DNA of 64,000 bases from a virus. Shown in pieces: positions 11,588 to 20,887 of the stretch. Positions within the stretch are counted from its first letter, which is position 1; every line of letters begins with the position of its first letter. The notes under the pieces are model-generated. The model was not told where the DNA came from. It was given only the letters and a program-made list of their open reading frames with translations, and made no database searches. The DNA lies in IMG/VR virus record IMGVR_UViG_3300025764_000004, positions 1 to 64,000 of that record, one strand, 5' to 3'. Both the position numbers and the translations under genes were made by a program.

Positions 11588-12829
11588 ATGATTGAGCGTA
11601 AAATATTGATTGGTATTGTTACCAGTACAGAGTACTGCAACCAGATTAAAGACATATTTGATTTAACCTTAATTGAGTCTGCGGCTGCGAAAAGAATGAT
11701 GTCGTGGATGTGGGATTTTTATAAAGAGAACAATGAAGCACCTAAACACGATGCAGTATTCTTATTCTGGAAACATGCAAAGCAATTGCCAAAAGATGTT
11801 GCTGAGGAGATTGAAGAAGAAATATTACCGTCTTTAGAAACAGAAAACGAAGCAGAGCCGTTCAATGTGTCTGCAATGGTTAAAGAAACCGAGAAATATT
11901 TCCAACAAAGAAAATTATCAGTATTAAGTGATAACATAAAAATATTAATTGAAAAAGATCAAGTAGAAGAAGCAGAAAAATTAGCCACAACATACAAGCC
12001 TTTTGAAACTGTTTCAAATAAAATAGATATTCACATTTTAAGTGCAACAGAGATAAGAGAACAAGAAATTGTAAAACCAATAACATTAATGTCACCGTGG
12101 TTGAAAGAAGGTCAAATGACAATCATTTATGGAAACTTTGGTAGTGGAAAATCATTATTGACAATTTTAGTTGCATACGTGTTAGGCTTAAGGGAGTATG
12201 ATGGAAAAGATTGTGAGATCAATAAATGGCAAGTGAAAACTCCAACAGGAACGCTTTACATTGATGGTGAAATAGGACAGCAAGAAATGGAAGAACGTAT
12301 AAAACAATTTGAATGGTTAGGCAGACAGTCTGTCAAACATCAAATGAAAGTTCTATCTATACCAGAATACCAATTAGAGACACAAGACACGTTTAATATG
12401 GTACTAAGAATAAATCAACTTAAAATAATTCAATGGCTAAAATCGCATCAGGAATACAAATTAGTTGTATTAGATTCTGTTAGTACGTTGTTTGGATTAG
12501 TTGAGGAGAATGATAACAGCGAATGGAACAACAAAATCAATCCATTCTTAAAGGATTTAAGAGCGTTAGGTGTAGCCTGCTTACTTTTACATCATGCCGG
12601 TAAGGATGGGAAACGTGGCTTGAGAGGAGCGAGTGCAATGGGAGCAATGGCACACAACATCTTTAGATTATCGGATCATAGTAAAAAAGAAAAAGACGAT
12701 GGCGAAGCTTGGTTCATTTTAAGCAAAGATAAACAGAGGCAAGCTGGATTTGGTTTTCGTTCTTTTGGAATTCATTATATGCAGAATAAAGATAAAACAA
12801 AAACGTTCTGGGAAATAACAGATTATTAA
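11588..12829 (+). CDS. Replicative helicase (RecA/DnaB/RepA AAA_25-like)
   Basis: GNFGSGKS, YIDGE, VVLDS, LHHAGK, RGAS. Confidence 0.85.
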   Translation: MIERKILIGIVTSTEYCNQIKDIFDLTLIESAAAKRMMSWMWDFYKENNEAPKHDAVFLFWKHAKQLPKDVAEEIEEEILPSLETENEAEPFNVSAMVKETEKYFQQRKLSVLSDNIKILIEKDQVEEAEKLATTYKPFETVSNKIDIHILSATEIREQEIVKPITLMSPWLKEGQMTIIYGNFGSGKSLLTILVAYVLGLREYDGKDCEINKWQVKTPTGTLYIDGEIGQQEMEERIKQFEWLGRQSVKHQMKVLSIPEYQLETQDTFNMVLRINQLKIIQWLKSHQEYKLVVLDSVSTLFGLVEENDNSEWNNKINPFLKDLRALGVACLLLHHAGKDGKRGLRGASAMGAMAHNIFRLSDHSKKEKDDGEAWFILSKDKQRQAGFGFRSFGIHYMQNKDKTKTFWEITDY

Positions 12830-12833
12830 AAAT

Positions 12834-12924
12834 GCTGAGTTATCCTTATGTGGTAGAGGAATAGATCGTTGGAGTGTTTTCCCAAAGTGATCGAATGGGA
12901 TGGGTTCGAACCCCATACTCAGCT
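12834..12924 (+). tRNA. tRNA-like RNA / pseudo-tRNA with no assignable anticodon
   Basis: Acceptor GCTGAGT/ACTCAGC, D-stem TCCT/AGGA with GG, T-arm ATGGG-TTCGAAC-CCCAT; elongated irregular middle arm. Confidence 0.6.
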
Positions 12925-12930
12925 CAAGTT

Positions 12931-12986
12931 CATTCTAATTACGGAGTCTATTGTTTGGACAGGGGTTCGATTCCCCTCAGCTCCAC
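12931..12986 (+). ncRNA. ssrA: tmRNA acceptor piece (3' half, encoded first)
   Basis: GGAC-AGGGG-TTCGATT-CCCCT-CAGCTCC-AC; CTAATTAC and TATTGTT pair with the coding piece. Confidence 0.88.
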
Positions 12987-13116
12987 TCTTTCGCCAAGGA
13001 AGATGCTGTTGGATAGCTCCCAACTGATTTTAGGAGATTACGGGGTAGCCTAAAAAAGAATGACAAAAGTATTTGCAGGAGTTGCATTGACGTTTGTACT
13101 GCATTTGCCCGTCCAC

Positions 13117-13244
13117 GGGGCTGACTGGTTTTGACAACAATAAGGTGAGTAATTAGTGATTTAATTCACAAAGAATGTTCTGCCTACAACAGGCAATGAT
13201 TATCAAATGAAAATGGCTGCCTAAGAGGTTGTCAAATTCGAGCG
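13117..13244 (+). ncRNA. ssrA: tmRNA coding piece (5' half, encoded second); tag GNDYQMKMAA at 13192-13224
   Basis: GGGGCTGACTGGTTTTGAC 5' end; G3.U70 acceptor pairing; tag frame ending GCT GCC TAA. Confidence 0.88.
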
Positions 13245-13269
13245 TGGGCTGCTTTAAAAGCCCATTTTT
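13245..13269 (+). terminator. Terminator after the tmRNA coding piece
   Basis: TGGGCT/AGCCCA stem + T tract. Confidence 0.6.
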
Positions 13270-13467
13270 AAAAAGTATGCAAAAGAAAAATCAATATACT
13301 GATCTAGAAATACAATATGAATTATATCCATGTTTGTATTATTATTTCAACTTCACTACTAACTGGTTAATGAGTTATAGAGTTGCCATGAAGATTGAAT
13401 TAAACACAAACTTGATTTACTTGAATTAATGTTACACAACAGGAACCAAAAGGATTAAAAAGTAAAA

Positions 13468-13493: not shown

Positions 13494-13883
13494 ATGTATG
13501 TCATAAGGAAAGAATTTCAAGCTAGTTGTATGCACCATTTATTAGGATTGCCTGAGGATCACCCGTGCGGACGAGTTCATGGGCATAACTATGTTATAGT
13601 GGTTGAGTTAAGATCAGAGACTTTAAACAAAATTGGATTTGTCAAAGATTATGGGGAACTTAACGTTATCAAAGAGTGGATTGACAAAACAATGGATCAT
13701 AGAGCTTTAAATGATGTATTCTCATTCAATCCAACAGCGGAAAATCTTGCAAAGCATTTATATGAAAGATTTGTAATGTTACTCGGGACTGATGGTATGT
13801 TTTTAAATGCTGTTGAAGTATCAGAGACACCCAAAACAAATTCACGTTTTTATAAAACATATAATGAGCACACAACTGATTAA
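13494..13883 (+). CDS. queD: 6-carboxy-5,6,7,8-tetrahydropterin synthase
   Basis: CGRVHGHNY, DHRALN, NPTAENLA, VSET. Confidence 0.93.
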   Translation: MYVIRKEFQASCMHHLLGLPEDHPCGRVHGHNYVIVVELRSETLNKIGFVKDYGELNVIKEWIDKTMDHRALNDVFSFNPTAENLAKHLYERFVMLLGTDGMFLNAVEVSETPKTNSRFYKTYNEHTTD

Positions 13884-14619
13884 AGCATTTCCTGACTTTG
13901 TAAAAGAGGAGCCTTCAGATAGCTTTTTAAGAGTGTCTGAGTTCTTTTGCGACACAATTCAAGGGGAAGGAATACATATAGGACACCCGGCTACTTTCCT
14001 ACGTTTTCAGGGCTGTGAATTATATTGTATCTATTGTGACACTAAAGAAGTTTGGAGGCAAGGCAACCCGTATTCATTCGATGAATTGTACACAATTATG
14101 TCTTCTGAAGGGTTGCCTAATAAATTACTTCATGGACAACATTTAGTCATAACAGGAGGGAGTCCTTTGTTGCAACAAAATAGTCTGTATTGGTTCTTGA
14201 CAGGATTTATAGCAAAGTTTGGATTTAAACCTTATATTGAAGTAGAAAACGAATGTGTAATCCCACCTAATTTAGGCCTGCAAGGTTTAGTAGATTGCTG
14301 GAACAACTCTCCAAAATTAGCATCAAGCGGTGTTTCCTCTTTTATCAGAATTAAAAATGAAGTTCTGTATAAAATGTCAAATCTGCAAAATAGTTGGTTC
14401 AAGTTTGTTATAGGAAAAGATGACTGTTGGTGTGAGATAAACGATTTAATTGAAGCTGGATTGATTCGTAAAGAACAGGTTATACTTATGCCGGAAGGAG
14501 CTACTCGAGAAGAAATTGCAGAGCATAAAGAAGCGGTGTTAAATATGGCTATACAACATGGTGTAAGATATTCGGATCGTTTACATATTCAATTTTGGAA
14601 CAGAGAAATAGGTGTTTGA
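13864..14619 (+). CDS. queE: 7-carboxy-7-deazaguanine synthase (radical SAM)
   Basis: TIQGEG, FLRFQGCELYCIYCDT, ITGGSP, SPKL, RLH. Confidence 0.92.
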   Translation: MSTQLIKAFPDFVKEEPSDSFLRVSEFFCDTIQGEGIHIGHPATFLRFQGCELYCIYCDTKEVWRQGNPYSFDELYTIMSSEGLPNKLLHGQHLVITGGSPLLQQNSLYWFLTGFIAKFGFKPYIEVENECVIPPNLGLQGLVDCWNNSPKLASSGVSSFIRIKNEVLYKMSNLQNSWFKFVIGKDDCWCEINDLIEAGLIRKEQVILMPEGATREEIAEHKEAVLNMAIQHGVRYSDRLHIQFWNREIGV

Positions 14620-14690
14620 AAAAGATGTGTATTAGTTGGTTTAGTTAGATCAAGAAACCTGGAAGTTTCTTGTGAGTTCTTTCAGGCTTA

Positions 14691-14717
14691 CCTCCTGTCC
14701 TTCGGGCAGGGGGTTTT
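14691..14717 (+). terminator. Terminator-like hairpin
   Basis: CCTCCTGTC...GGCAGGGGG-TTTT. Confidence 0.6.
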
Positions 14718-14815
14718 GGCATCAAAAGAGATAGGTTATGAAAGATATAGATTTTGAACCATTTGATCTTATATGTTATCCCGAAGTAGTACCAGAATCA
14801 GAAAGAGAATAAGTT

Positions 14816-15022
14816 ATGAAAAAACAAAAAAGATTTGAAATTGGGGATTTTTTAAAAACAAGAATAACCGGCATGCACCCTGAAATTATAATTTCAGATG
14901 CACCTCCAACTAAATGGCAGATATTTTTCTACAAAGTAAATCCATTTAAAAGATTTTTCAATAATAAAGAACGAGAAAGAGTTTATAAATGGTATTTATC
15001 ATCAAAAGAAGGTCGTTTATGA
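14816..15022 (+). CDS. Hypothetical protein
   Basis: ORF track. Confidence 0.55.
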   Translation: MKKQKRFEIGDFLKTRITGMHPEIIISDAPPTKWQIFFYKVNPFKRFFNNKERERVYKWYLSSKEGRL

Positions 15023-15291
15023 ATCAAAAACAAAAAGATCAGTTAAGACTGGCAGCTTTACTCATACACGAAGCTGAAAGTATTATAAAAGATGTTAAAT
15101 CAGAAGAACAAAAATCTATTAACGATCTAAAAATAAATAAGGCTGTTGATTTAAACAGAACATCTGAAGAGGTAATAGCTGCTCTAGAAGATGCGGAATA
15201 CTCATTAAAAGATGTAACTTCCAACCTTTCTACGACACTTGTAGAAGATTTTATTTGTATAATAGGTGTAAGAAATGTTTTTTACAATTAA
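15019..15291 (+). CDS. Hypothetical coiled-coil protein (start MNQKQK)
   Basis: Track ORF 14989..15291, internal ATG. Confidence 0.6.
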   Translation: MNQKQKDQLRLAALLIHEAESIIKDVKSEEQKSINDLKINKAVDLNRTSEEVIAALEDAEYSLKDVTSNLSTTLVEDFICIIGVRNVFYN

Positions 15292-15323
15292 GAATTAATT
15301 CATTAATCATTAAAATTGTTATT

Positions 15324-16058
15324 ATGAAAGCAAAATTGAAAGACTTGCAAGTCGCTGCACAAGAATTGAATGCAATCGGGATCGACCCGGAAATTGATGC
15401 TGCATCTACGGATGTAGAAGTATTGTTTGCTGGAATCAAAGATTCTTTGAGTGTTATTGAAGACACAGACGAGTTCACAACAAAGACTCAATCTGTTATT
15501 GACGAGGTTACAGAAATTGTTGAAGCCGACAAAGTTCCTGAAGAAAAACCAAAACGTCAGGTGAAACCTGTTGCTGCTCCGGTTGTTGCTAAAAAAGAAG
15601 TGGTAGAAGAGGATGCAGAAACAACTCTTTATGACAAAGTAAAAGCTACCGCAAAGGTTGCTGATTTGAAAGCTATTGTTGAAGAAGAAGATGACTTCAA
15701 AAAGATCCGGAAAGCAATCGACACGTTCAAAAATCCATTTATCCTGAAACGTGCAATGTTGGACATTCTGGAAGAATCTGATCCGAAACTTGCTACAGGT
15801 GCTGCTGAAAAGAAAGCTGCAAAAACAGCAAAGAAAGAAGTAGATCCAAACGCTCCAAAGAAAAAGAATCCTTTTGTAAAGGTTGCCGGACAATTGTCTA
15901 ATCTGGAAGTTGCTGAGAAGCTGTTATCAGAAAAAGCTGATCCGAAAACCATCTATGCTACATTTACCAAAGTGTATGAAGGCAAAGCTGGAGCAGACGA
16001 AAAGTACATTAAAGGCCGAGCAGACATTTACATGAAAATTGCTGCAAAAGGTAAGTAA
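15324..16058 (+). CDS. Charged Lys/Ala/Glu-rich protein, C-terminus paralogous to 1747..2385
   Basis: YIKGRADIYMKIAAK; TTGTATAATA motif upstream and terminator downstream. Confidence 0.8.
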   Translation: MKAKLKDLQVAAQELNAIGIDPEIDAASTDVEVLFAGIKDSLSVIEDTDEFTTKTQSVIDEVTEIVEADKVPEEKPKRQVKPVAAPVVAKKEVVEEDAETTLYDKVKATAKVADLKAIVEEEDDFKKIRKAIDTFKNPFILKRAMLDILEESDPKLATGAAEKKAAKTAKKEVDPNAPKKKNPFVKVAGQLSNLEVAEKLLSEKADPKTIYATFTKVYEGKAGADEKYIKGRADIYMKIAAKGK

Positions 16059-16082
16059 CTAAGTATTGATTTAAGTATTTAT

Positions 16083-16120
16083 GAAGCCCAGAGTTTAATT
16101 GATTACTCTGGGCTTCTTTT
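16083..16120 (+). terminator. Intrinsic terminator
   Basis: GAAGCCCAGAGT/ACTCTGGGCTTC + TTTT. Confidence 0.8.
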
Positions 16121-16132
16121 AAACTTTTTATA

Positions 16133-16675
16133 ATGACACCAGAAGTACTAATTTATAAAATGCTCTTAGAAATTGGAGAGGATCCTGACAGAGAAGGATT
16201 GCTAGAAACTCCAAAACGAATTGTAAAATCCTGGAAAGAACTTTACGCAGGGTATAATCAAAATCCTGCAGACTTGTTTACTGTATTTGAAGCAGGAACA
16301 TACAATCAGATTGTACTTCTTAAGGATATTGAAGTTTATAGTCTTTGTGAACACCACGGTCTGCCGTTCTTTGGAAAAGCTCATGTTGCATACATACCAA
16401 ATGAAAAAGTTATAGGTATTTCCAAATTAGCACGTCTAGTAGATGTGTTTGCAAGGAGAATGCAAATTCAAGAACGAATCGGAGAACAAGTTACTTCTGC
16501 ATTAATGGAATATCTCCAACCAAAAGGTGCCGCTTGTATTATCCAAGCCTGTCATATGTGTATGAGAATGCGAGGAGTCAACAAACAACAATCTACAATG
16601 ATCACCTCTTCGATGAAAGGGGAATTTTTGACAAATTTATCAGCTAAACAAGAATTAATGTCAATAATAAAATGA
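16133..16675 (+). CDS. folE: GTP cyclohydrolase I
   Basis: REGLLETPKR, SLCEHH, GISKLAR, QIQER, HMCMRMRG. Confidence 0.96.
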   Translation: MTPEVLIYKMLLEIGEDPDREGLLETPKRIVKSWKELYAGYNQNPADLFTVFEAGTYNQIVLLKDIEVYSLCEHHGLPFFGKAHVAYIPNEKVIGISKLARLVDVFARRMQIQERIGEQVTSALMEYLQPKGAACIIQACHMCMRMRGVNKQQSTMITSSMKGEFLTNLSAKQELMSIIK

Positions 16676-17001
16676 AAAAATTTGTAACTATACGAACACA
16701 GTTTCCGGCCGTACATTGTTGGCCTGATTGTAATATCCCATCAGTAGGGTATCTTGTATTTCCACATCGTCATTTATTTGTTATAAAAATGAGTTGGGAA
16801 GTGTCAGATAATAATCGCCAAATAGAATTTATTTCTAAAAAACAAGATGTGAACAAATACATTGCAAAACATTTTTATGATAAAGATTTGCGTTCTATGT
16901 CTTGCGAAGACATTGCAGAAAAACTGCTAAACAGATTCAATGCTGACTCTATATCTGTATTTGAGGACGGGGAGAATGGTTGTGAGATATTTAAAGACTA
17001 A
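16672..17001 (+). CDS. dpdL: T-fold QueD paralog, DpdL-like (putative CDG decarboxylase)
   Basis: LxxxHRHxF (LVFPHRHLF), SCE and EDGENG motifs; context. Confidence 0.7.
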   Translation: MKKFVTIRTQFPAVHCWPDCNIPSVGYLVFPHRHLFVIKMSWEVSDNNRQIEFISKKQDVNKYIAKHFYDKDLRSMSCEDIAEKLLNRFNADSISVFEDGENGCEIFKD

Positions 17002-17003
17002 GA

Positions 17004-18353
17004 ATGAAAAAATCAATCAATATTATCGACCCGTGCTCCACTGAGCAAAATCGAGGTAGTTTCTGTTATTCACCATATTTGTGTTATAATGGAATGGCTT
17101 TCACTCTTGATGCTAATTTAATCGAATCATTCCAACCAGAAGATTTAGACAGTATTCCTGATGCGGACATACAACTTGTTTGTCTGTGGTCCTATCCTCA
17201 AATAGAATCTTCGATGATGTTAGCTATGTCACTTCCGTTTATGTACGGTAAAGACAATGTCTATTTTGTTGGGTATTCACCATTAATCAAACAATTAGGT
17301 TTACATCATATTGAAGAAAAGTTAGGATTTGATCCATTACAAGATGAAGCATTCCTTGTTCATGCAATGAGTCGATACCCTGTAAATTATCACAAGTTTA
17401 AACGTTTGTTATTATCCGATTGTGATATGCATCTACGTCATTTAGATGCAGGAGAAAAGGTTTATCCACTGTTCACTTCATACGGTTGTGACCAAGGATG
17501 TTCATTTTGCCCAAGTACAACTAATTGCGGACGTAGGAGAATTGAAGTTCCTTTGTCTAAAGTTTGTACAATGTTAGATCAGTGTATCAAACAAGGCATA
17601 AAATCTATTCATTTTACAGATGAAGATTTCTTTTACGACATCAACCGGGCATTTAAAATCTTGTTAATGTTACAAGGAAAAGGAATGCATCTGATTGCAT
17701 TAGGATCTGCTGAAGCTGTTTCTTACTTTATTGCTAAATATGGTGTTGACCCAATTAAAAATGCAGGTTTAGAAGTGATTGAGATTGGATTTGAATCAGG
17801 GGATGCAGAAGTGTCTAAGAAAATGGGACATGGTAAAAGTTTGTCTGCTTGCGAAGAACTTGCACAGATGCAAGATTGGATTCCATTTCGTATATTCTGG
17901 TTAGTACTTACCTTCTTTCCAGGTGAGACAATTCATAGTTTAAATGAGACAGGACGCTTCATGTTAAAGTACGGATTTGAACAAGAAGAGGTGATGGGGA
18001 GGCTTCGTACAAATGGAACAAAGATTGGCCTTGGGCAATTTATGCAATGGTATGATGGTATAGCTATGGCTAAATCTTTAGAAAAAAATGGAATAAAATT
18101 AACGCAAAGGCCTGTAAGATTGATTCCTTCGTATGTTCCAAATTCGTTTTTGGAAAGTATAATTACTGAAATACACGAAGAAGCTATTGAAAAAACAATA
18201 CCTTATTTAGAGCTATACAATACTGCTTTGCCTAATAAACCTCTTGAAATCGGCAGAAAAATAAGCTATTATTTAGAAGATATGCCTATATACGGTTACA
18301 TACGCACATTAACTGCCTTAGCAATATTAGCCAGAGGAGGAGTCATACGATGA
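17004..18353 (+). CDS. Radical SAM enzyme, B12-binding/class-B-methylase-like architecture
   Basis: TSYGCDQGCSFC, FTDEDF, IGFESG after a ~150-aa N-terminal domain. Confidence 0.8.
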   Translation: MKKSINIIDPCSTEQNRGSFCYSPYLCYNGMAFTLDANLIESFQPEDLDSIPDADIQLVCLWSYPQIESSMMLAMSLPFMYGKDNVYFVGYSPLIKQLGLHHIEEKLGFDPLQDEAFLVHAMSRYPVNYHKFKRLLLSDCDMHLRHLDAGEKVYPLFTSYGCDQGCSFCPSTTNCGRRRIEVPLSKVCTMLDQCIKQGIKSIHFTDEDFFYDINRAFKILLMLQGKGMHLIALGSAEAVSYFIAKYGVDPIKNAGLEVIEIGFESGDAEVSKKMGHGKSLSACEELAQMQDWIPFRIFWLVLTFFPGETIHSLNETGRFMLKYGFEQEEVMGRLRTNGTKIGLGQFMQWYDGIAMAKSLEKNGIKLTQRPVRLIPSYVPNSFLESIITEIHEEAIEKTIPYLELYNTALPNKPLEIGRKISYYLEDMPIYGYIRTLTALAILARGGVIR

Positions 18354-18655
18354 ACGCTAAACTCAAATCTTTTGCATCGAATCTGATGCTAATAACAGGT
18401 ATCATTACAAGTATTGCCGGGGTTATTGAAACTATCGGTAAACTGGTATTGTCTTTCCGCACCAAGAATATCCCAGAGGTTAAATCAATCAGTAAGTCAA
18501 TAATCCCGGAGTATGGCGACTTGCCCTCGGCTCCTCCTACTATTGAACAGGTAAGTTTCTTTGCTGAGTATCGAGGAATAATATTGATAGTTACCGGAAT
18601 ATTGGTTATTGCATTTTCATTGTGGATTATCAAACGGTTAAAAACTAGAATATGA
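18350..18655 (+). CDS. Two-TM membrane protein
   Basis: Two hydrophobic segments; ATGA overlaps. Confidence 0.6.
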   Translation: MNAKLKSFASNLMLITGIITSIAGVIETIGKLVLSFRTKNIPEVKSISKSIIPEYGDLPSAPPTIEQVSFFAEYRGIILIVTGILVIAFSLWIIKRLKTRI

Positions 18656-19677
18656 GAACAGTAATATTAAACATTCCAATAGAACCTATTGAAGATAGAT
18701 ATAGTGTACAATGGGATAAATGGTTTCAGAGTGCTTTTCATGAGAATCCTGATTTAGAACTTATTAGTGTGCATGGAGGAGTTACTTCAGGAAGTATCAG
18801 ACAAGGTAGTTTTTTAGATGTCATAGAAACGAATCTATATAAAAATAAACAGTTAGACAAGATTCTGCATTATCTAAACACTTATAAAGATGATCATAAA
18901 CTCATTTTATTTTTCCATGATTTGTGGAATCCTGCACTTACATCAATAGCGTACGTTCGGGATGGGATGGGTTGGAAAAATCTACGTATATGCGGATGTC
19001 TTCATTCAGGAAGTTATGACAAGTTTGATTTTTTAAACAAACAAGGAATGACTAAGTGGGCAGCTAGAATAGAAGAAGGATGGTGTAAGATTGTAGATAA
19101 AATATTTGTAGCTACTCATTATCATGATATTTTACTACGCTCAAAAAGAGTATTATTAGATGATTGGGATAAAATTGTTGTAACAGGATTCCCTCTTTAT
19201 GACGATTTTCAACAACCTCATAATATAATGGATGACGAAAGTATTCCTATTATAGTATTTCCTCATCGTTTAGACAGTGAAAAGAATCCTCAAATGTTTG
19301 ATGAATTAAAAAGCAGACTACCAAGTTATAGATTCATCAAAACAAAAGAAAACTGCAAGACTAAAGAATCATATTATCGTTTATTAAAATCTTCTGATGT
19401 TGCTGTTAGTTTTGCAGATCAAGAAACCTGGGGTATAGCAATGCAAGAAGCAGTTATTTGCGGAGCTCTTCCGATGTGTCCTAATCGTTTGTCTTATACT
19501 GAAATGTACCCATCTGCTTTTTTATTTGAGAATTTTGAAGAGTGTGTCAACAAAATAAAATGGTTATTAGCACATGAGAATCAAGCTAATGAATTTCTAC
19601 AAAATACCAAAAATACAATTCTCCGTAAAGGCAGAGAAGCAATTCCAAATATGATTAAAGAAATTGAAAAACTATGA
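18652..19677 (+). CDS. GT-B (GT4-like) glycosyltransferase
   Basis: HSGSYD, FPHRLDSEKNP, QETWGIAMQEAV, RLSYTEM. Confidence 0.85.
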   Translation: MRTVILNIPIEPIEDRYSVQWDKWFQSAFHENPDLELISVHGGVTSGSIRQGSFLDVIETNLYKNKQLDKILHYLNTYKDDHKLILFFHDLWNPALTSIAYVRDGMGWKNLRICGCLHSGSYDKFDFLNKQGMTKWAARIEEGWCKIVDKIFVATHYHDILLRSKRVLLDDWDKIVVTGFPLYDDFQQPHNIMDDESIPIIVFPHRLDSEKNPQMFDELKSRLPSYRFIKTKENCKTKESYYRLLKSSDVAVSFADQETWGIAMQEAVICGALPMCPNRLSYTEMYPSAFLFENFEECVNKIKWLLAHENQANEFLQNTKNTILRKGREAIPNMIKEIEKL

Positions 19678-19811
19678 AAACAGACATATATCCAGATGAT
19701 GAAGATTATGAAGAAATAATCAAAGATGATTATGAAGATGATAGTGAATGGGAGGAAGAAGATGAAGATAAAGAAGATGGCTATGGTATAACTTCAGATG
19801 ATGAATTATGA
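19674..19811 (+). CDS. 45-aa hyperacidic peptide
   Basis: Manual translation; 24/45 D/E; ATGA overlaps at both ends. Confidence 0.65.
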   Translation: MKTDIYPDDEDYEEIIKDDYEDDSEWEEEDEDKEDGYGITSDDEL

Positions 19812-20887
19812 AAAAGAATATTTTTGATTTCAAAGTGTTTATAGATTGTGGGGCTCCTTCGCTCTACAATAAACTGTCTCGAAATGATTTATCTGGTGGG
19901 CGAGGAGTGATGGGCACAAAGATGTCGGAACGTAAATTTGATGATTACTCCTATGTAGACAAACCAGAATATGCTACTTATCGAGAAGCTTATATTGAAT
20001 TTATGTTAAAGCATAAGGATGAAGTTGATGTTTATTCAAACTTAGATGTTATCAACAATCCTAAACTGACATACAGAAATCAAAAGATAATCGAAGAAGC
20101 AGGGTTACATCCAATTCCAGTTTGGCACTTAGGCAATGATCCGAAATGGTTAGAAAGGTATGTTAAAGAATACGATTATATTGCTATCGGAGGACTTGTA
20201 CCTAACCCGACATCTGTACTGATTCCTTTATTAGATGCCTTATTTAAAGAACACTTGCTAGACAGCAAAGGGTACCCGAAAGTTAAGCTTCACGGCTTTG
20301 CCTGCACTTCATTGCCACTGATGGAACGCTTCCCATGGTTTTCAGTCGACTCGGCTACTTGTAGAAAACTTGCAAACTTCGGAAGTATTGTTTTGCCAGA
20401 TTACGGTAAACAGAATCCTGTTAGTACATTTCAAGTGTCTTCTCGTACAAAAAGAATACCAGAAGAAAAAGTAGGAATGTTTAATCTTGAGGATGCTCCT
20501 GCATCAGACTGGTTAACAGATATGTCAAGTCAAGTTAGGAAAGCATTTGATTTAAGATTAGATAAATACGGAATGACTATACAACAATTAGGGGACAGTA
20601 TTATTCACAGAGTTGTCTGGAATTATTTAATCTTCTCTGAAGTAATACAAAAGACTGTTCCTGCATGGCCGTGGAGTATGCAGACTAGACAATGTAAATA
20701 TGAGTCTGCATATTGTGAGGAAGATCTCGGTTACATGACTTTCTATTTTGCCGGAATACTTAGCAAAAGTGAAGAGAATACATTCTGGAAAGGTGTATCC
20801 CATCCTATTACTGAACGATTAAAAGGTTCACTTCGATCCTTTTTCTATGCACAGAACGCTGAATATGTACTTAGTTTAAAAAAGTAA
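19808..20887 (+). CDS. dpdA: TGT-fold DNA base-exchange enzyme, DpdA-like
   Basis: IDCGA, NLDVI, PIPVWH, IAIGG, LHGFA, FSVDSA; deazaguanine gene context. Confidence 0.72.
   Translation: MKKNIFDFKVFIDCGAPSLYNKLSRNDLSGGRGVMGTKMSERKFDDYSYVDKPEYATYREAYIEFMLKHKDEVDVYSNLDVINNPKLTYRNQKIIEEAGLHPIPVWHLGNDPKWLERYVKEYDYIAIGGLVPNPTSVLIPLLDALFKEHLLDSKGYPKVKLHGFACTSLPLMERFPWFSVDSATCRKLANFGSIVLPDYGKQNPVSTFQVSSRTKRIPEEKVGMFNLEDAPASDWLTDMSSQVRKAFDLRLDKYGMTIQQLGDSIIHRVVWNYLIFSEVIQKTVPAWPWSMQTRQCKYESAYCEEDLGYMTFYFAGILSKSEENTFWKGVSHPITERLKGSLRSFFYAQNAEYVLSLKK

Follow-up and report, generated by a model that had tools for sequence, protein, structure and literature searches.

A very small, circularly permuted tmRNA gene in a phage genome, with a tRNA-like domain resembling that of one-piece Bacteroidota tmRNAs

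The stretch of DNA analysed here, called the window, comprises the first 64 kb of an IMG/VR virus record of 74,009 bp, which CheckV rates complete. The phage encodes a portal, a major head protein and a tape measure protein. Between a gene for a DnaB-like AAA_25 helicase (11588–12829) and the queD and queE genes (13494–14619) lies, on the coding strand, a gene for tmRNA, the RNA that frees stalled ribosomes. Its setting is a replication and deazaguanine-modification module. Downstream of the tmRNA gene (13494–20887, + strand), queD, queE and genes for a radical SAM enzyme, a glycosyltransferase and a tgt/DpdA-like protein together form a 7-deazaguanine DNA-modification cluster.

The single RNA gene reported by ARAGORN in the window is a permuted tmRNA at 12894–13315 (+) with the tag GNDYQMKMAA; its 3' tRNA domain, 5' tRNA domain and tag are placed at 12948–12986, 13117–13143 and 13192–13224 respectively. 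The Rfam model RF04321 (tmRNA_permuted) aligns in full, without truncation, to 12937–13224 with 74.3 bits against a threshold of 47 (E = 2e-12). In the RF04321 alignment and in the ARAGORN call ('Permuted'), the 3' half of the tmRNA lies upstream of the 5' half. An initial annotation, made from the letters of the window, had claimed a phage-encoded, circularly permuted tmRNA and had proposed ARAGORN and Infernal with permuted-tmRNA models as checks. Both return a permuted tmRNA, and the locus is confirmed as a genuine, circularly permuted ('two-piece') and very small phage tmRNA gene. The features of the locus are as follows:

12834..12924, + strand: tRNA-like element directly upstream, ending six bases before the acceptor piece; 19 bits with the Rfam tRNA model (threshold 29), found by ARAGORN at a lowered threshold only
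12931..12985, + strand: acceptor piece (ARAGORN 3' tRNA domain, RF04321 alignment, co-fold), made up of the 3' strands of P2c, P2b and P2a (12931–36, 12937–42 and 12950–55), T-arm (12961–77), acceptor 3' strand (12978–84) and discriminator A (12985)
12986..13116, + strand: 131-nt intervening segment, aligned by RF04321 as an insertion
13008–13024, + strand: hairpin inside the intervening segment (hairpin scan)
13060–13134, + strand: 24-codon ATG open reading frame with a hydrophobic product, beginning in the intervening segment and running into the 5' end of the coding piece
13117..13191, + strand: 5' part of the coding piece (ARAGORN 5' tRNA domain, RF04321, co-fold), made up of acceptor 5' strand (13117–23), D-loop-like segment, P2a and P2b 5' strands (13136–41 and 13149–54), extra hairpin (13156–69), P2c strand (13172–77) and resume-context hairpin (13181–95)
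13192..13224, + strand: tag reading frame, GGC to TAA (ARAGORN; gapless in-frame alignment with Bacteroidales tags of the GNDYNFAMAA type and with the tag GNSYQMKAAA of viral locus L237)
13245..13269, + strand: terminator-like 3' hairpin (13245–64; 6 bp, 8-nt loop) followed by a T run, read from the sequence

The tRNA-like domain, evident in the sequence, the ARAGORN call and the RF04321 alignment alike, has a 7-bp acceptor stem with G3.U70, a discriminator A and a T-arm with a TTCGA-type loop. In the acceptor stem 12978–84 forms seven pairs with 13117–23, G3 (13119) standing opposite a T (12982), and the T stem is formed by 12961–65 and 12973–77. Three long-range helices join the two pieces, namely 12950–55 with 13136–41, 12937–42 with 13149–54 and 12931–36 with 13172–77. 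The Ala-type acceptor stem with G3.U70 and the long-range helices named in the initial annotation can thus all be read in the sequence. It had also been stated that CCA is not fully encoded and that smpB is missing from the window; only the first C is present, and a SmpB gene was not found in the whole 74-kb record.

The tag frame contains no AUG. It runs from the GGC resume codon to GCT GCC TAA and gives GNDYQMKMAA, with a hydrophobic, degron-like end in AA before the stop. Both the tag and the terminator described after it were recovered, the former by ARAGORN; the hairpin at 13245–64 falls slightly under the criteria of the terminator scanner and is nevertheless plain in the sequence, as is its T run. 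This hairpin (13245–69) aligns to the terminal hairpin of the beta_tmRNA model, has counterparts 3' of the tag in the related phage genes described below, and is likely the end of the coding piece. The gene had been called very compact, and only 68 nt, filled by P2a–c and one hairpin, separate the acceptor strand from the resume codon. Pseudoknots PK1–PK4 were not found in the phage tmRNA, the folding tool being unable to predict pseudoknots, and the terminator hairpin is the only structure past the tag. PK1 matters in the tmRNA of Escherichia coli. The number of pseudoknots varies among known tmRNAs and is zero in the mitochondrial form, so their lack does not exclude the gene from the tmRNAs.

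The segment between the two pieces (12986–13116) would be removed during maturation, and the 24-codon open reading frame that starts in it may have arisen by chance. In the tRNA-like element at 12834–12924 the 7-bp acceptor stem is perfect and both D and T arms are present, but an irregular 31-nt insert takes the place of the anticodon arm; true tRNAs lie at the corresponding flank in three related viral loci (L151, L154 and L239) and in the crAss-like phage cr7_1, and the element is possibly a processing handle or a decayed tRNA. A sigma-70 promoter scan recognized no promoter on the + strand. In the ViennaRNA minimum-energy fold of the whole pair, P2a gives way to a competing 9-bp pairing (13130–38 with 13228–36). 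The strands of this pairing, one in the D-loop-like/P2a region and the other immediately 3' of the tag stop codon, are perfectly complementary over 9 nt; the match is not seen in loci L151 and L153.

Two-piece tmRNAs are a textbook case of RNA gene permutation and are credited to three bacterial lineages plus mitochondria. The bacterial lineages are found in alphaproteobacteria, in one lineage of betaproteobacteria and in cyanobacteria; studies by Keiler in 2000 and by Sharkady and Williams in 2004 are said to be the sources for these three. Like them, the phage gene is circularly permuted, carries alanine identity elements and passes RF04321, and in all of them a single precursor is presumably processed into two base-paired RNAs. 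The phage linker, however, is one nucleotide shorter, and the phage gene has TTTTGAC and TTTGGAC where these lineages have TTTCGAC and T(C)CGGAC or TCTGGAC. Its resume codon encodes Gly instead of Ala, and the lineage-specific helices and pseudoknots are missing. Phage copies of the alpha, beta and cyano two-piece types are also on record, in pelagiphages, Melnitz and cyanophages (PMC9004378).

The subtype models RF01849, RF01850 and RF01851 all fail on the phage gene. The highest score, 38.7 bits, comes from the beta model, whose threshold is 84; the alpha and cyano scores lie below it and were suppressed by clan competition. A true permuted member usually gets a better score from its subtype model than from the merged RF04321 (PMC11915505), whereas for the phage gene RF04321 outscores every subtype model. 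BLAST of the locus against isolate phages matched the universal T-arm only.

To place the gene, the first 20 nt of the coding piece were used as a query against one genome per species from 185,579 species. At least 120 genomes matched. Bacteroidota groups are named in 78 of the 80 titles listed, and of the two exceptions one (L067) belongs to the same GTDB phylum as a Bacteroidales metagenome-assembled genome (MAG). This exception (genome G010) is a MAG titled 'Candidatus Competibacteraceae' with a Bacteroidota-type tmRNA, and it draws the same phylum sample as the Bacteroidales MAG; either its title or the binning of its contig is doubtful. ARAGORN finds a tmRNA at most of the matching loci, and every one that starts at the 20-mer is a standard one-piece gene of 363–402 nt with a Gly-starting tag, as the initial annotation had stated for Bacteroidota in general. 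Two 'permuted' calls, at 2611–3188 of L036 and 5147–5825 of L080, are spurious: they overlap the 3' end of a standard Bacteroidota tmRNA and have implausible tags, a reminder that ARAGORN tmRNA* calls need checking. Among 151 sampled genomes of the Bacteroidota phylum, none has a permuted tmRNA above threshold.

These one-piece Bacteroidota genes (RF00023), especially the Bacteroidales genes of ~370 nt, share with the phage gene the same 5' tRNA-like strand, nearly the same 3' strand and the same acceptor stem. The genomes in the 5'-strand comparison were chosen by the same 20-mer; two features that played no part in the selection agree with it. The 10 nt before the T-arm match Bacteroidota at 9–10 of 10 positions, against 7–9 of 10 in the cyanophage, beta-consensus and merged-consensus references (the two-piece references for this core comparison being Rfam consensus lines and two cyanophage genes). 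Similarly, a GCC...AAC-N-GGC hairpin around the Gly resume codon, likewise not used in selection, is common to the phage and Bacteroidota genes, as is the 10-residue tag length. A subset of Bacteroidales MAGs with genes of ~370 nt encode the 10-residue tags GNDYNYAIAA, GNDYNFAMAA and GNDYNYALAA (loci L051, L101 and L132), and the alignment of the phage tag region with these genes is in frame and gapless, with 32 of 45 nt shared. The host genes differ in being collinear, 363–402 nt long and equipped with PK1–PK4; the phage gene is permuted, has none of the four and carries P2 strands at its new ends. The agreement of 5' strand, 3' strand, resume hairpin and tag, together with the failure of the alpha, beta and cyano models, bears out the assignment to a Bacteroidota type, and the sequence comparisons support it for the tRNA-like domain, the resume context and the tag.

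The same comparisons bear on where the gene came from. A permuted tmRNA could instead descend from a known two-piece lineage of the beta or cyano type, perhaps via other phages, its core and resume context having later converged on the needs of Bacteroidota SmpB, AlaRS and ribosomes. Beta is the best subtype model and its terminal hairpin is aligned, the 3' half of the phage tmRNA is 93% identical to that of cyanophage S-CAM1 over 45 nt, and the types differ in the tRNA-like core at only about three diagnostic positions. The tmRNA database also files all permuted genes as alpha, beta or cyano, including the few (48) from Bacteroidota-binned genomes (PMC11915505). Such convergence would have to account for four separate Bacteroidota features: the 5' core, the 3' segment before the T-arm, the GCC/GGC resume hairpin with its Gly codon, and the identity of the tag. 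The beta score is under half its threshold, RF04321 exceeds all subtype models, the reverse of what true members show (PMC11915505), and the phage gene has neither the extra helices specific to the lineage nor the PK1 stem that the beta model contains. Descent from a known two-piece lineage is considered unlikely. Descent from one-piece Bacteroidota tmRNA, separate from the alpha, beta and cyano lineages, is most likely on present comparisons. The tRNA-like domain cannot prove it, being short and, in its 3' half, similar to cyanophage genes as well.

The architecture recurs in other viruses. An exact 22-mer of the 5' strand of the window tmRNA had no match in viral contigs, and the 20-mer was present in 13 viral contigs, with eight permuted genes (RF04321 55–70 bits) and four standard host-type genes. 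In all eight permuted genes the P2 3' strands, T-arm and acceptor 3' strand come first, and an intervening segment of 41–194 nt separates them from the same 5' core; a short linker leads from this core to a GGC resume codon, and the tag, whose last residue is A, is followed by a terminator hairpin. A pattern of the core followed by AAC-N-GGCAA within 28–56 nt, which excludes genes with PK1, was found in at least 117 viral contigs, 81 of which have the complete permuted layout with intervening segments of 16–242 nt. RF04321 is passed by 17 of 20 sampled family contigs. Thus at least 81 other viral contigs carry a minimal permuted tmRNA with the architecture of the window gene, and no pseudoknot was found in the family. 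The Bacteroidota-phage minimal permuted family can be defined by the core ...TGGTTTTGACA... and ...TTTGGAC-T-arm, P2 3' strands at the 5' end of the acceptor piece, AAC-N-GGC within ~30–55 nt of the core, no PK1–4 and a terminator hairpin after the tag. The window tmRNA has all of these features.

Within the family the paired elements vary together. Twelve acceptor-stem variants occur, all of them complementary and all keeping G1-C72, G2-C71, G3.U70 and discriminator A. Co-folds give locus-specific P2 helices in which the strands of each locus pair together, and cognate inter-piece co-folds are more stable than permuted pairings (p ~0.0003); a simple duplex-energy test of cognate against non-cognate strands was uninformative because P2a is shared, and full co-folds were used in its place.

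These results also bear on whether the locus is non-functional, either as debris of integration into a host tmRNA gene, with an attP-type 3' fragment beside a captured 5' fragment, or as an assembly rearrangement. Genes for tmRNA are common integration sites and fragments of them occur in prophages (PMC9004378, PMC11590407). Moreover, a second T-arm-like element lies just upstream, and standard host-type genes are present in the four viral contigs mentioned above. The two halves are nevertheless mutually complementary, the locus-specific P2 strands pair with each other, and the same order and covariation are found in more than 80 contigs from many samples. The attP/integrase interpretation was rejected, since the tmRNA is flanked by the DnaB-like helicase and queD/queE with no integrase next to it. 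An assembly rearrangement, against which the initial annotation had advised a check, is excluded as an artefact, since more than 80 independent contigs show this gene order. As a whole, the non-functional reading is hardly credible.

The tags of the family differ from host tags; their frames remain open, with small hydrophobic residues before a final A. Nearest to the tag of the window are GNSYQMKAAA (L237) and GNNYEMRAAA (L239), and the L237 and window frames differ by synonymous and replacement changes in the same frame. This conservation is relevant to the possibility that the RNA interferes with the host, either as a decoy titrating SmpB or AlaRS or by re-tagging host proteins, which would be akin to the tmRNA of mycobacteriophage DS6A. 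The drastically reduced structure, the lack of a phage SmpB and the unlikeness of family tags to host tags would agree with interference, and a molecule consisting of the tRNA-like domain only strongly inhibits tmRNA (PMC4131195). Mycobacteriophage tmRNAs, one-piece in the Bxz1 group and limited to the tRNA-like domain in DS6A, are likewise phage-borne without a phage SmpB (PMC4131195). The DS6A RNA is also extremely reduced; both it and those of the Bxz1 group are collinear, unlike the gene described here, and DS6A has no tag frame whereas the window gene keeps one. A decoy needs no such frame, yet the frame, resume context, stop and degron-like C-terminus are conserved across the family, and synonymous changes separate the window and L237 frames. 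Because the tag frame is conserved, real tagging is preferred, and interference is regarded as very improbable.

Phage tmRNAs of this kind are already present in public records. RefSeq crAss-like phage cr7_1 (Suoliviridae; NC_055895, 20629–20985) carries a gene annotated as 'transfer-messenger RNA, SsrA' that is permuted according to both ARAGORN and RF04321 (66.4 bits). It has the same order of acceptor piece, intervening segment and coding piece, the same minimal size without an evident pseudoknot, the core ...TGGTTTTGACA... and flanking tRNA genes. Its acceptor stem and tag differ from those of the window (cr7_1: DNVNNIVDYTNVA), and its crAss-like genome contrasts with the siphovirus-like 74-kb genome studied here. 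Table S1 of a 2022 study gives the ARAGORN call 'Permuted' for crAss-like phages cr10_1, cr50_1, cr114_1, cr115_1 and cr273_1 and for Cellulophaga phage phi4:1 (PMC9004378); these genes are known here from the table alone, in which the calls stand uncommented, with no analysis of lineage or structure. By the count of the same study, isolate phages, most of them marine, have 53 unique permuted tmRNA genes, which it relates to the alpha, gamma (beta-type) and cyano lineages (PMC9004378). A paper on Maribacter phage Panino mentions phage tmRNA only in connection with integration. In the literature consulted, no paper was found that describes a Bacteroidota-derived or pseudoknot-free two-piece tmRNA lineage. 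The window gene is therefore a further representative of a widespread phage family for which public annotations and entries in a supplementary table already exist.

Two points of the initial annotation stand only in part. It had suggested an independent permutation event in a phage; independence from the three bacterial lineages is likely and unproven, and the event is not singular to the phage of the window, being shared with at least 81 further contigs and cr7_1. It had also advised asking whether the gene falls within a clade already described: the alpha, beta and cyano subtype models fail, but two-piece tmRNAs of phages, including the crAss-like and Cellulophaga calls, are on record (PMC9004378).

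A close cultured relative of the phage was not found, and its terminase-like open reading frame had no match among isolate phages. Its nearest relatives by helicase are 13 IMG/VR loci with 51–61% identity, in none of which is a tmRNA present beside the helicase; it is also absent throughout the five whole records checked. In three of these loci queD follows the helicase directly, after 60–280 bp, and the 664-bp spacer between helicase and queD in the window is therefore an insertion relative to them. The gene is evidently dispensable, given that the 13 relatives lack it. A more distant relative (L153), with seven syntenic proteins at 32–46% identity, has a tmRNA with an identical T-arm. Bacteroidota make little use of Shine–Dalgarno pairing. 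In the phage, motifs of this kind precede 9 of 71 genes, which equals the background rate at random positions (with crude gene calls) and fits a Bacteroidota host; the Bacteroidota -7 motif TAnnTTTG was not found upstream of the phage genes. The type of the tmRNA and the gene starts poor in such motifs, as crudely called, give indirect support to Bacteroidota as the host.

The following mode of action is proposed. The locus would be transcribed from the + strand as one precursor, probably together with the replication genes, and cut by the tRNA-processing enzymes of the host, RNase P acting at the 5' end of the coding piece while 3' trimming and CCA addition act on the acceptor piece. The products would be an acceptor piece of ~55 nt and a coding piece of ~110–150 nt, held together by the acceptor stem and the three-part P2 helix. 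Because G3.U70 and discriminator A are kept, the rebuilt tRNA-like domain would be charged with alanine by host AlaRS, and host SmpB and EF-Tu would carry the charged RNA to stalled ribosomes; since the phage has no SmpB, function would depend wholly on host factors. Translation would restart at the GGC codon, append (A)GNDYQMKMAA and terminate at TAA, whereby the ribosome would be freed and the protein marked for proteolysis. For the phage, the conjectured gain is that ribosome rescue is kept up during infection. Host tmRNA is reported to rise late in a lytic infection of Bacteroides fragilis (PMC13139388). A phage copy could keep ribosome rescue going while host RNA is destroyed or defences cut mRNAs, although a role in counter-defence, which the initial annotation had entertained, is speculation.

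The preferred explanation, held with good confidence, is that of a genuine two-piece tmRNA that would work in this manner, belongs to a family carried by Bacteroidota phages and most likely descends from one-piece Bacteroidota tmRNA. Counted against it are the lack of a recognized promoter, the absence of PK1, the competing 9-bp pairing and the nearest relatives without the gene. An origin independent of the known two-piece lineages, as judged from the sequence features, is likely, with chances rather better than even. The fuller proposal, of a fourth lineage independently permuted from a host one-piece gene, free of pseudoknots and fully active in tagging with host SmpB, is more tentative and falls a little short of an even chance. 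If true, this would be the smallest natural tag-encoding tmRNA, and it would provide direct evidence from nature that trans-translation can do without pseudoknots.

The value of the window gene itself is modest, as a further family member found by standard tools. A further lineage derived from Bacteroidota one-piece tmRNA and spread via many phages, including crAss-like gut phages, would be an independent replay of permutation. Also, a natural minimal tmRNA (~55 + 110–150 nt) of tRNA-like domain, P2 and tag would allow a test of what tmRNA needs, and one would have to ask what makes ribosome rescue worthwhile for so many Bacteroidota phages. In Bacteroidota-binned genomes, permuted tmRNAs listed under 'beta' or 'alpha' may be phage genes of the Bacteroidota-phage minimal family.

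Other structured RNAs were seen near the family genes. RAGATH-9 RNA (Rfam, 146–154 bits) is present in 8 of 20 sampled family loci (L176, L222, L180, L227, L223, L191, L172 and L196), for example at 1090–1258 of L176 and 4581–4749 of L222, on viral contigs of 57–102 kb. It lies directly upstream of the permuted tmRNA in four of these (L176, L222, L191 and L172), and Hatchet ribozymes occur nearby in L172, L180 and L196.
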